Below, one piece after another: positions 34,001 to 37,000 of a stretch of DNA of 64,000 nucleotides; the first letter of the stretch is position 1; every line of letters starts with the position of its first letter. A program made the position numbers. Where the stretch lies: NCBI GenBank assembly GCA_021156325.1, contig JAJNDI010000001.1, forward strand, positions 30,816 to 94,815, given 5' to 3'. This stretch comes from Gammaproteobacteria bacterium. GTDB taxonomy: Bacteria; Pseudomonadota; Gammaproteobacteria; JAJFKG01.

Positions 34001-37000
34001 TCTGGATGAACTTTTAAGACAGTCCGATTTTGTGACCGTGCATGTACCGTTAACAGAACAAACCCGGAATTTGATGAGTAGCAAACAATTAAAGACTTTG
34101 CAAAAGACAGCGGTGCTGCTTAATTTTTCACGGGCTGAAATCGTAGATGAAAACGCTTTATTTGCTGCGTTGAATGAAGATCATTTATATGCTTATGTTT
34201 GTGATTTTCCTGCTGATCCGTTGAGATCGCACCCTCGTGTGATTGCTTTACCGCATTTAGGCGCATCGACTGCTGAAGCAGAAGAGAATTGTGCGCAAAT
34301 GATTGCAACCCAAGTGCGTGACTTTTTGGAAAACGGCAATATTACCAATTCTGTGAATTTTCCTACAGTCGTTTTGCCGCGTACTGAAAATACTTATCGC
34401 TTATGTATTGCCAATGAAAATATTCCCAATATGGTAGGTCAAATCTCAAGCGTCTTGGGGGAAGCGGGATTAAATTTAATAGAGTTACTGAATAAGTCGC
34501 GTGACAAAATAGCGTATACCATGCTGGATGTGAATGCCCCTGTTCCAGAGGCGATTCTCAAGCGATTGTCTCAAATTCACGGTGTTTTAAACGTAAGAGC
34601 TGTCTAGTCGGGGTATTGGCTTGCGCTGGCGGGCTGATCTCAGTATGATGCCGGTCTTATAGAGCAGCCTTATTTAAGAAAGAGATTTATTTTCGGGGTA
34701 TAGCGCAGTTTGGTAGCGCGCCTGCTTTGGGAGCAGGATGTCGGGGGTTCGAATCCCTCTACCCCGACCAACACAAAACCGATCAAAAATTAACCAATCG
34801 TCTCCGTTTGGTACAAGCCCATTTTAACTAAAAATAAAAGTTCAATGTATTTGTACATCATTTTTAAAACAGCAGTTTGCTAAAAGCCTTTTTTATTTGA
34901 GATGGTTTTTACAAATAAATGAAGAGGCTTTCAAAATATATTGCGATTATTATAATCAAAATGTTGAAGGGCTTGAAAAATTTTTGTTTGGAAACGATCA
35001 AAAAGCACCACAAACCACTATGGTTGAAGGTAGAATTGCTGATAATCAAGCCTTAGTAAAGTCTGTGCAACGATTTCTAAAAAAACAAGTAATGGCTAAA
35101 ATGAAGCCCTTGTCGGTTCTACAGAAATATTTCTTAGAAGCTCTTGCAGCAGATCTTGCAGTTAGAATAGACGCTGTTAAGAATGAGACAAAGATTGATA
35201 ATGAACTAGTAGGGGTAGGTAGCCCAGCTAGTTCTAGTAGTGATGAAGAAAGGAAAGAACCAATGAGAATACAGTATATTGTAGATCCAGCAAAAACTAG
35301 AGGTCAAAATGCTTACTATATTGATCAGATCTATAGACAGATCAGATATGCTGCTAAAAAAAATGAAGCAGAAACAGAAAAAAATAAGAAAGTAGCGCGA
35401 AAGGTTTGGGATTTTTGTATTGCTCTAGATACCCAAGATACAATACCTAGTGATAAGTGGAAACAAATTTTCGATGGGTTGAAACCTCTTCTCCTAGACA
35501 TCGTTTCTACTGAAAAAAAAGAAGAAGGGTATAAAGAAAGGGCAATTAAAGAATATATTGAAAAAACTCATAGAAAATTTGCTGAAGAACGCGAAGGGCT
35601 GACTAAAGAATTAAGTAAAGAGACCAAAGAGCTAAGCGAAGCGAATAAGGAATTAAGCGAAGAAAATAAGCGATTGATGGCAGTGCTAAGTATCATGCTA
35701 CCAAACGCTTCAGCAGAGCAGAAACAAGCATTGCTGACACAATACCCAGACATAGCCGTTTCTGTTTTCCCTCAACTGCTAATAGCGGATCCTTCTGACT
35801 CTGAAAGTTCTTCAAGTTCTATAAGCGCCTCTTCTGCAAGCATAAGTCTTTCAAGTGCCTCTGCTAGTCATGTCTCCTTTTTACCGCCGCCCTCTACAGA
35901 AAGTAAAAAGAAACCAGCATCTTCCCCGCTGGATGAGATCGATAGTAGTTCCTCGAAAGTAGCAAAGACCGGCGAAGGGGTAGATGTGAAAACAACCTCT
36001 TTTCATTCTGCTGCACCGCAATAAAGAAAGCTAGTGAGTTACTACGGATTTGGTTATAAAATCTTGATGTATCCATTCTTGTTTATAGTTAATGCTTCAA
36101 TGCCTAGCTTTGCAATAAGAACGATCCAAAAAAAATTGTCAAAAAGGCCTGTTTGCATAGCAAGTGGACATTGACTAACTTTTCAGGCAACTGCGGATGT
36201 CGACAATCAGTATCAATTAAAATAATACAGTAGATTAGTAGGTAGGCTGTGTAATTATGAAAGATTTTACTCAGAGAAAAGAATATACAATATTATAAAA
36301 ATATTGTATATTGCTTTAATGTTGAATTTTATTTTAATAAATGCAATGAAAATGCGAAACATAATAAGTTGCCTAATGATAATGGCAATGGGCATAGGGT
36401 TTTTTGCAAGCATAGCATTAGCAGATACACAAACAGATCAGTCGAATGAAAACCTGTGGACAAAACTGTGGGGCAAACCAACCCCGAGCGCCTTATATCT
36501 TGGTATGGCTACCTATCATTTAAGTAAATCCAGGCGAGATGATCGTTGGAATAACAACTTGGTCGGGGGCAGTTACAATGGCTATTTTGCAGGAACACTG
36601 CAGAATTCGTTTGATGATCGTGCTTTTGTTCTTGGGGTTGAACGTTTGTGGGCGATACAACATCTCTCAGAGAATATAGATAACCAAATCGGTTATCGTT
36701 TAGGATTAATCAGCGGCTACGATGAACGTATGACCAATATTGCTGAACACACTCCTGTATTACCATTCCCTCAAGTATTTGATAATATCATGCTGGATGA
36801 ACGGGTAGGCCTTCAGCTTAGTTGGTCGATGATAGTGTTTTCTGCTGGGTTTGTTGTGCAATTTTAATAGGATTGCTAACATCCCGTCTTTTATAAATAG
36901 TTACGATTATTTCATCGCCGTTATTGGGATGATAGGCTCTAAGCCCAGCCTCTCCTAAAGGAGGAAACTTACGAAGAAAAGAAGCCGTTTTGGTCATTTT

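Follow-up and report, generated by a model that had tools for sequence, protein, structure and literature searches.

The described proteins closest in character to the one considered here are substrates with coiled-coil regions and C-terminal signals that Legionella and Coxiella export through their type IVB (Dot/Icm) machinery. Glu-rich C-terminal signals, the E-blocks, are bound by DotM (PMC5802825), and host farnesyltransferase modifies the CaaX boxes of Legionella and Salmonella effectors (PMC2916131, PMC13081727, PMC13423502). The subject of this analysis is an open reading frame (ORF) of 375 amino acids (aa) located at 34897-36024 on the forward strand of a 64-kb stretch of DNA, referred to throughout as the window, from the gammaproteobacterial assembly GCA_021156325.1 (64,000 nucleotides; contig JAJNDI010000001.1, positions 30,816 to 94,815). 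Its product, the window protein, has several traits in common with Dot/Icm substrates. It is a lineage-restricted ORFan with a GC content below that of the core genome, it is predicted to be all-helical with a coiled coil, and its disordered C-terminus is rich in small, polar and some acidic residues. A eukaryotic lipidation motif, a further trait of such substrates, is carried by a neighbour of the ORF. The window protein differs from them in having no sequence or fold similarity to any described effector and no Glu-rich E-block, and none of the testable hallmarks of a Dot/Icm substrate was found in it. By analogy, it may most resemble the coiled-coil, low-complexity ORFan effectors of intracellular bacteria in its possible mode of action.

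A second group for comparison is formed by effectors that carry a CaaX box, such as AnkB and PelC/PelE of Legionella and GtgE of Salmonella. The likeness here lies with the neighbouring ORFan at 37144-37764 on the reverse strand, which ends in CCCVLS after a Ser-rich tract. The window ORF differs from this group in having no lipidation motif (its C-terminus reads ...HSAAPQ), and the neighbour has neither a homolog nor a domain match, its prenylation being a candidate feature.

The ORF is a genuine coding sequence. What is new is that it belongs, probably in truncated form, to a rare family of modular proteins that are effector-like and uncharacterised, with four members found. With some reserve, we lean towards the reading that it is a copy of such a protein without the N-terminal domain, most probably truncated at its 5′ end and probably cut at the boundary with a tRNA-Pro gene.

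Relatives and architecture of the family

The relatives came to light when residues 1-298 of the window protein were compared exhaustively, with HMMER, against 1.84 billion cluster representatives. The Ser tail was left out because its low complexity would otherwise dominate the search. Matches were obtained to P0002, a protein of 759 aa (E 3.2e-13, over its residues 289-535), to P0003, of 394 aa (E 3e-11), and to P0004, of 840 aa (E 8e-4, over its residues 456-741). When the Ser cluster and the coiled coil were removed, the window protein still matched P0002 at E 9.5e-6 and P0003 at E 1e-4 on the scale of the whole library, and residues 119-232 alone matched P0003 at E 8.5e-5 on the same scale. 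The similarity between P0002 and P0004 extends along their length (E 3e-64). It is through this link, and through the match of its tail to that of the window protein, that P0004 is tied to the family.

The first-pass annotation had called the ORF an orphan. This is true for annotated databases, but it does not hold strictly, given the three remote homologs from the exhaustive search. When 5.8 billion proteins were searched by word index with the whole sequence, the sole match was the protein itself (“hypothetical protein K0R12_64”), and a word-index search with a four-sequence profile, from which the low-complexity parts had been removed, returned only the window protein and P0003. No relative was seen in two scans of JGI metagenomes, which used the alignment of the family and that of the N-domain, respectively, nor in a scan of IMG/VR, and P0002 matched none of 72,556 plasmids and 50,697 phage records in tblastn. 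The contigs of the homologs carry no taxonomic marker. On these sequence comparisons, the family is real, extremely rare and without name or annotation.

The full-length form is represented by P0002 and P0004. P0004 alone opens with approximately 200 residues of Ser/Pro-rich sequence. Both have an N-terminal domain of approximately 270 aa with the motif FC-x2-H ... IEHAxPYA ... SYNAMRNxYLLCxxCNxxKxD. This is followed by the block IFLPxxNAPGLGELIRxWF, a helical region, an acidic serine cluster (SSS-x-D) and a second helical region. Within the portion NAPGLGELIRxWF of the block, APGLG is identical in all three relatives. The rear consists of a coiled coil with an 8-rung heptad ladder and then a long Ser/Pro-rich tail with basic patches. 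The 8-rung ladders begin at residue 531 of P0002 and residue 676 of P0004, downstream of the module shared with the window protein. The Cys/His motif of the N-domain (C-x2-H ... IEHAxPYA ... NxYLLCxxCNxxKxD) resembles the signature of the HNH (beta-beta-alpha-Me) superfamily, PF01844. This HNH-like appearance is only a lead, and the strength of the Pfam match is considered below with the truncation. The window protein differs from the superfamily in that the whole domain is missing, and it has no Pfam HNH match.

The window protein comprises the rear 60 % of the family architecture and none of the front. Its alignment begins at residue 2, “(L)RWF”, at the end of the block NAPGLGELIRxWF, and continues to the C-terminus. 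The protein starts at the equivalent of P0002 residue ~289, the N-terminal Cys/His domain of ~270 aa being absent, and tblastn with the N-domains of the relatives found the domain encoded nowhere else in the window. In the case of P0003, the third relative, the gene was cut by a transposon of the Tn3 family. On its contig, L083, the C-terminus of the transposase occupies 3-488 and the P0003 locus 571-1923, and the transposase end just upstream of P0003 matches Pfam DDE_Tnp_Tn3 at E 8e-41. The homology between P0003 and P0002 starts at 571, which is 168 nt before the annotated start at 739, and reaches into the remains of the Cys motif. Judging from its sequence, P0003 shows how N-terminally cut forms arise, and such forms make up two of the four known members, P0003 and the window protein.

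The features of the locus to which the following sections refer are:

34694-34770, forward strand: tRNA-Pro with anticodon UGG (ARAGORN; Rfam tRNA, 70.2 bits), left edge of a low-GC variable stretch
34828-34896, forward strand: 23 open codons 5′ of the TTG, in frame and without ATG, GTG or TTG, read from the sequence
34897-36024, forward strand: the 375-aa ORF with its stop at 36022-36024, corresponding to the C-terminal module of the rare family, whose full-length members have 759-840 aa
34897-35220, forward strand: first helical region, residues 1-108, predicted helices, aligning to P0002 from ~289 and to P0004 from ~456
35221-35250, forward strand: acidic serine cluster SPASSSSDEE, residues 109-118, with SSS and D invariant in all four family members
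35250-35265, forward strand: AAGGAAAG (35250-35257) and then an ATG (M123, 35263), the only in-frame start candidate with a Shine–Dalgarno-like sequence
35299-35508, forward strand: second helical region, residues 135-204, with the best-conserved positions of the family (I, R, C, LD, W)
35524-35706, forward strand: long predicted helix, residues 210-270 (61 residues), with the KELS heptads and the Leu ladder (AlphaFold2; heptad count)
35806-35868, forward strand: Ser/Ala tract SSSSSISASSASISLSSASAS, residues 304-324, predicted to be disordered, with 14 S and 4 A among 21 residues
35902-36021, forward strand: conserved terminal motif, residues 336-375, SKKKPASSPLDEIDSSSSKVAKTGEGVDVKT...AAPQ, matching the P0004 tail TKKHSSSTPIELLDSTPSKISKTDEETNVKA...VAPK

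Helices, serine tract and tail of the window protein

As had been noted from the sequence at the outset, no enzymatic motif is recognisable: searches of Pfam, NCBIfam, PHROGs and PADLOC gave nothing significant. For the window protein and its relatives alike, the searches returned only sub-threshold coiled-coil noise (HNOBA 0.013, SocB 0.0032, ZorA 0.001, SMC and PspA). Homology to a housekeeping coiled-coil protein, which the first-pass annotation had named as a finding that would speak against its account, was not found. Sequence searches of the PDB produced no match, and a Foldseek search of the AlphaFold2 (AF2) model against the PDB produced nothing below E 0.15.

The AF2 model, made from the single sequence, is all-helical from residue 9 to 290 and disordered from 296 to 375, with an overall predicted local distance difference test score (pLDDT) of 52.8. 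The block-mean pLDDT of the helix at residues 210-270 is higher, at 68-89. The heptad-like repeats noticed earlier are present in this helix: KELSKETKELSEANKELSEENKRL, residues 237-260, contains three KELS heptads, which sit in a five-rung i,i+7 ladder (L239-L246-L253-L260-M267). Residues 210-270 are predicted to form a coiled coil of the leucine-zipper type, through which the protein may dimerise. The similarity to leucine-zipper dimeric coiled coils lies in the Leu or Met at every seventh position over five heptads (239-267) and in the predicted helix of 61 residues. Unlike in such zippers, no basic DNA-binding region as in bZIP proteins was recognised next to the helix, and Pfam gave no bZIP match.

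A near-pure Ser/Ala tract had been reported at approximately 25 residues; the tract is real but measures 21. Against a Ser background of 6.5 %, the chance of at least 13 Ser in 21 residues is about 5e-11 per position. The codons of the tract are a mixture of TCN and AGY, and Tandem Repeats Finder detected no tandem repeat in the region. For these reasons, its composition is set at the level of the protein and not by replication slippage, and the tract is not a microsatellite.

The last 40 aa, previously described as rich in Ser, Glu and Asp, are in fact Ser/Lys-rich (S 9, K 6, D 3, E 2), with a pI of 8.1. The last 30 aa alone are mildly acidic (pI 4.8), with 2 Glu, 3 Asp and no Glu run. The conservation of the tail was assessed through local alignment against composition-preserving shuffles (n=3000). 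The last 40 residues, SKKKPASSPLDEIDSSSSKVAKTGEGVDVKTTSFHSAAPQ, align with TKKHSSSTPIELLDSTPSKISKTDEETNVKADPSIAVAPK of P0004 with a score of 76, versus 35.4 +/- 5.8 for the shuffles (z = 7.0, 0/3000). P0003 has the C-terminus ...DSSPKHKFGKTGE, containing KTGE, and P0002 has ...HKRIKSEH near its end; neither is individually significant in this test. The window protein has a coiled coil and, after it, a disordered tail that is rich in Ser and bears the terminal motif K-x-x-K-T-[GD]-E. A linear motif that is conserved in a disordered tail, between proteins that are only ~23 % identical overall, points to a function, and the sequence would be compatible with a signal for export or localisation or with a motif that binds a partner. 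Two resemblances picked out by eye in “...AKTGE” were rejected. The Keap1-binding motif ETGE is spoiled by Lys at the position where D, E or S is required, and the SUMO consensus by the lack of a hydrophobic residue before the Lys.

Boundary of the ORF and competing explanations

The coordinates, length and TTG start given for the ORF by the first-pass annotation hold, as does its adjacency to tRNA-Pro(UGG) at 34694-34770, the gap between the two being 126 nt. A contig from JGI and one from Logan both contain the ORF sequence at 100 % identity, so it is not an assembly artefact, and the same 375-aa product is listed in the gene records of NCBI and JGI. An in-frame stop lies at 34825-34827, and TTG 34897 is the first ATG, GTG or TTG after it. 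The 23 open codons between the two occupy the place of the conserved block ...IFLPxxNAPGLGE of the relatives. The uncertainty raised earlier about the start codon is borne out, as neither the TTG nor the ATGs of M42, M66 and M69 have a Shine–Dalgarno sequence; the duplex energy at these four sites is about 0 to -1.5 kcal/mol, versus a median of -5.7 for 26 window genes. Since the Shine–Dalgarno-like AAGGAAAG precedes M123, a 253-aa product could be made from that codon. The scan window over this sequence gives -5.3 kcal/mol versus the same median, with the scan anchored at 35272 and not at 35263. Scans for promoters and terminators gave no more than chance level.

The ORF lies at the edge of a stretch of 5,313 bp (34771-40083) that is bounded by tRNA-Pro(UGG) and by tRNA-Pro(CGG), the latter at 40084 on the reverse strand, with tRNA-Arg(UCU) at 39118 inside it. 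Besides these three tRNAs, no Rfam family was found. At 0.384, the GC content of the stretch is below that of the flanks (0.43), and only 56 % of it is taken up by the tRNA and by ORFs that reach 100 aa or more. The ORF itself has a GC content of 0.379 and a third-position GC content (GC3) of 0.27. The stretch has no classical island signature, since neither an integrase nor an att-type repeat was found in it, nor a direct repeat of the tRNA 3′ end. The gene pair serC-serA is conserved in 77 of 80 related loci. Nothing downstream of it is conserved in these loci and there is no tRNA there, so that they offer no empty site for comparison.

Several observations favour a 5′ truncation. In the relatives, the block within which the ORF starts is contiguous and conserved, and the ORF itself uses a TTG without a Shine–Dalgarno sequence. 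It abuts a tRNA in a low-GC, gene-poor stretch that contains another gene fragment. In addition, its GC content equals that of the contigs of the relatives (0.379, compared with 0.377-0.386). A number of points weigh on the other side. The frame of 375 codons is intact, and over 202 ungapped columns the window protein is 23-28 % identical to the other members, versus 22-23 % for the full-length P0004. It keeps 15 of the 28 positions at which the other three members agree, while P0004 keeps 15 of 36. An intact frame, together with conservation like that of P0004, gives no sign of decay, and the module may be functional as a stand-alone form. The 23 codons 5′ of the TTG show no significant similarity to the relatives (p 0.1-0.6); the break point is therefore not directly visible, and homology of these codons was dropped as evidence for it. 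The searches gave no closer full-length relative, no empty site and no ortholog by which the truncation could be dated or proven. As all three copies of the locus are identical, selection cannot be gauged from them. The nature of the missing head is also weakly defined: the Pfam HNH match of P0004, at residues 372-388, has an E of 0.24, far below threshold, and the N-domain of the relatives has no PDB sequence match and gave an unusable AF2 model (pLDDT 41.5).

Under the truncation that we favour, the ancestor would have had an N-domain with an HNH-like motif, two helical regions around an acidic Ser cluster, a leucine-zipper coiled coil and a Ser-rich tail. A truncation at the tRNA-Pro boundary would have removed the N-domain and left the remaining module intact. 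Translation, if kept, would start from the TTG or from M123 with its Shine–Dalgarno-like sequence. The product would be a helical protein that associates with itself via the coiled coil and bears a flexible Ser-rich tail. It could act as an adaptor or targeting module without the presumed catalytic head of the family.

The same boundary could be read in other ways. The TTG start of the ORF, the missing Shine–Dalgarno sequence, the absence of a known domain and the low-complexity composition might suggest that its frame is open by chance, in AT-rich DNA between genes, and codes for nothing. The homologs exclude this explanation, which we rate as exceedingly improbable: they are found at E 3e-13 and 3e-11, and still at 1e-5 to 1e-4 without the low-complexity parts, and the 375-aa product appears in the gene records of both NCBI and JGI. 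An origin in mobile DNA deserves more weight, while remaining unlikely. In that case the family would be cargo or machinery of a mobile element, for example an island or transposon nuclease, with no role in a host cell, and the window copy would be inert, unexpressed debris from a rearrangement at the tRNA. The relatives do adjoin RelE/HTH and HicAB toxin-antitoxin pairs, a PD-(D/E)XK transposase, a tyrosine integrase and a Tn3 transposase, half of the four known members are N-terminally cut, and the locus is low in GC, poor in genes, flanked by tRNAs and accompanied by another gene fragment, with no ribosome-binding site at the start of the ORF. Yet the family was not found in the plasmid and phage records or in IMG/VR, it corresponds to no PADLOC or PHROG family, and the stretch in the window has no integrase or att repeat. 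The 375 stop-free codons, despite a third-position GC content of 0.27, and the conserved tail motif also speak against debris. Long Ser/Pro-rich and basic tails are, moreover, unusual for mobile-element enzymes.

A further explanation, about as improbable as the mobile one, is that the protein is complete and stands alone, and that a type IVB or other system delivers it into a eukaryotic host, the Ser-rich C-terminus acting as the export signal and the coiled coil binding host proteins. The intact frame would fit, as would a module as conserved as in the full-length relatives. The last 40 residues are specifically conserved with P0004 despite their disorder, as would be expected for a linear motif or signal. 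When 47 ORFs are ranked by the S+T+D+E content of their last 30 residues, a post-hoc comparison, the window protein and the three other family-less proteins of the window take places 2-5, and three of the four have the lowest GC content. The neighbouring ORFan ends in a CaaX box, and a Ser-run tail is also present on a eukaryote-type class-3 lipase protein on the contig of P0004. Set against this, there is no E-block, with 2 Glu in the last 30 residues and a pI of 8.1 over the last 40; the 64-kb window contains no Dot/Icm or other secretion gene; the host organism is not placed in Legionellales; and the ORF begins inside the conserved block of the family, without a Shine–Dalgarno sequence at the annotated start. 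The likeness of the other ORFans' tails is no more than compositional (z at most 3.1 in 16 tests). The type IVB C-terminal signal proposed by the first-pass annotation is neither supported nor refuted by the last 30 residues and the gene content of the window, and the surroundings of the ORF, with the CaaX-box neighbour and the other S/T/D/E-tailed proteins, are suggestive of effectors. A Dot/Icm substrate is defined by the presence of a Dot/Icm system, a C-terminal signal and demonstrated translocation. Dot/Icm effectors without an E-block exist, so the missing E-block does not exclude translocation. As the window is without Dot/Icm genes, the tail without an E-block and the organism not placeable, the Legionellales and type IVB framing of the ORF is unproven. 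Overall, the observations of that annotation were confirmed and its interpretation was supported in part.

A broader proposal, which we consider quite unlikely, is that the window protein and its three relatives form a host-directed family from uncultured, low-GC, eukaryote-associated bacteria, and that this family combines a nuclease head of divergent HNH type with a leucine-zipper stalk and a Ser-rich tail. At the same low level of confidence, the tail, with its basic (nuclear localisation signal-like) patches and terminal motif, would be an export signal or a linear motif that binds host proteins. It is just as doubtful that the window organism, a deep-branching gammaproteobacterium which also encodes the H-Ras-like CaaX-box protein, keeps a version without the nuclease that still enters the host, there to serve as an adaptor or to compete with the full-length form.

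The four family-less proteins of the window are:

34897-36024, forward strand: the window ORF, 375 aa
37144-37764, reverse strand: 206 aa
25121-26389, reverse strand: 422 aa
56692-58095, reverse strand: 467 aa

The ORFan at 25121-26389 lies between tilS and pyrG, has a GC content of 0.374 and a C-terminal tail rich in S, T, D and E, and gave no match to a Pfam, NCBIfam or PHROGs family. The protein at 56692-58095 has a P-loop GTPase core at residues 238-382 (MMR_HSR1, FeoB_N and GTP_EFTU matches), a GC content of 0.391, an N-terminal region resembling a coiled coil and the tail ...SPEKPDSASSSSGNASTSDGEWAIVSF, with no equivalog; from its sequence, it looks effector-like. The lipase protein of the P0004 contig, L084, is encoded at 4519-6396 on the forward strand (625 aa; class-3, eukaryote-type lipase domain PF01764, E 1e-5) and adjoins HicAB and an integrase. 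Its tail has a Ser run and then a K/E-rich portion (...SISSSSSSSLSLPKAGLFKSASKRKSEIRED...), with a composition like that of the family of the window protein. A portable tail module shared among the ORFans of the window and this lipase was considered and rejected, the likeness being compositional only, with z at most 3.1.

The host organism and the surroundings of the ORF

The best non-self match of DnaE is 67 % identical, and its named matches, at about 60-62 %, span several gammaproteobacterial groups (Thiohalophilus, Kaarinaea and one “Legionellales bacterium” metagenome-assembled genome, or MAG). The nearest matches of SerA, at 63-64 %, belong to unclassified Gammaproteobacteria and Chromatiaceae. 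Most proteins of the window are alone in their 90 % clusters. On these comparisons, the organism is regarded as a deep, unplaced gammaproteobacterial lineage without a close sequenced relative. The window carries the housekeeping genes scpAB, folD, fabZ-lpxA-lpxB-rnhB-dnaE-accA-tilS, pyrG-kdsA-eno, dam, serC-serA, ispB, obg and murJ, and further ribF, ileS, lspA, a pilin gene, clpB, rimI, prfC, an arginine/agmatine antiporter gene, valS, holC and pepA. Besides these, it holds a few proteins without a family match.

Taken alone, the ORF is one more lineage-restricted, low-complexity ORFan, probably truncated, and its importance is modest. In a word-index search it looks like an orphan, and it nonetheless has relatives that reveal its domain history, which guards against over-reading it as a complete novel effector. 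The ORF, its CaaX neighbour and the other Ser-tailed, low-GC, family-less proteins among the housekeeping genes form a pattern that marks the bacterium of the MAG as a candidate for association with eukaryotes, with a so far unexplored set of effectors.

The ORFan at 37144-37764 on the reverse strand (191 aa in the JGI call) contains a Ser-rich tract and has the C-terminus ...SSASDSDHVRCCCVLS. It gave no match in Pfam, NCBIfam or PHROG. Its terminal CCCVLS consists of two further Cys and then the canonical CaaX box CVLS, which is also the CaaX motif of H-Ras. This sequence is a strong hint of protein delivery into a eukaryotic cell. A 113-aa ORF at 37679-38020, also on the reverse strand, has a same-strand overlap of 86 nt with the start of the CaaX ORF, and the two may be one frameshifted gene of ~290 aa.

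The remainder of the stretch between the tRNA-Pro genes holds little else. The region 38020-39118, of ~1.1 kb, has no ORF of more than 90 aa and a GC content of 0.36-0.42; with the gene fragment described next, it brings the coding share of the stretch down to 56 %. The other gene fragment, a 117-aa ORF at 39705-40058 on the forward strand, is located between tRNA-Arg(UCU) and tRNA-Pro(CGG). It matches only positions 147-226 of the 228 of NF004836, “CTP synthase C-terminal region-related protein”, with E 5e-31, below the cutoff of the model. At 36304-36867 on the forward strand, downstream of the window ORF, a protein of 187 aa matches no Pfam or NCBIfam model. It has an N-terminal, signal-like hydrophobic segment and matches PHROG 3600 ([quoted passage not shown]) at E 1.2e-14, and is likely a divergent outer-membrane acyltransferase of the PagP type.

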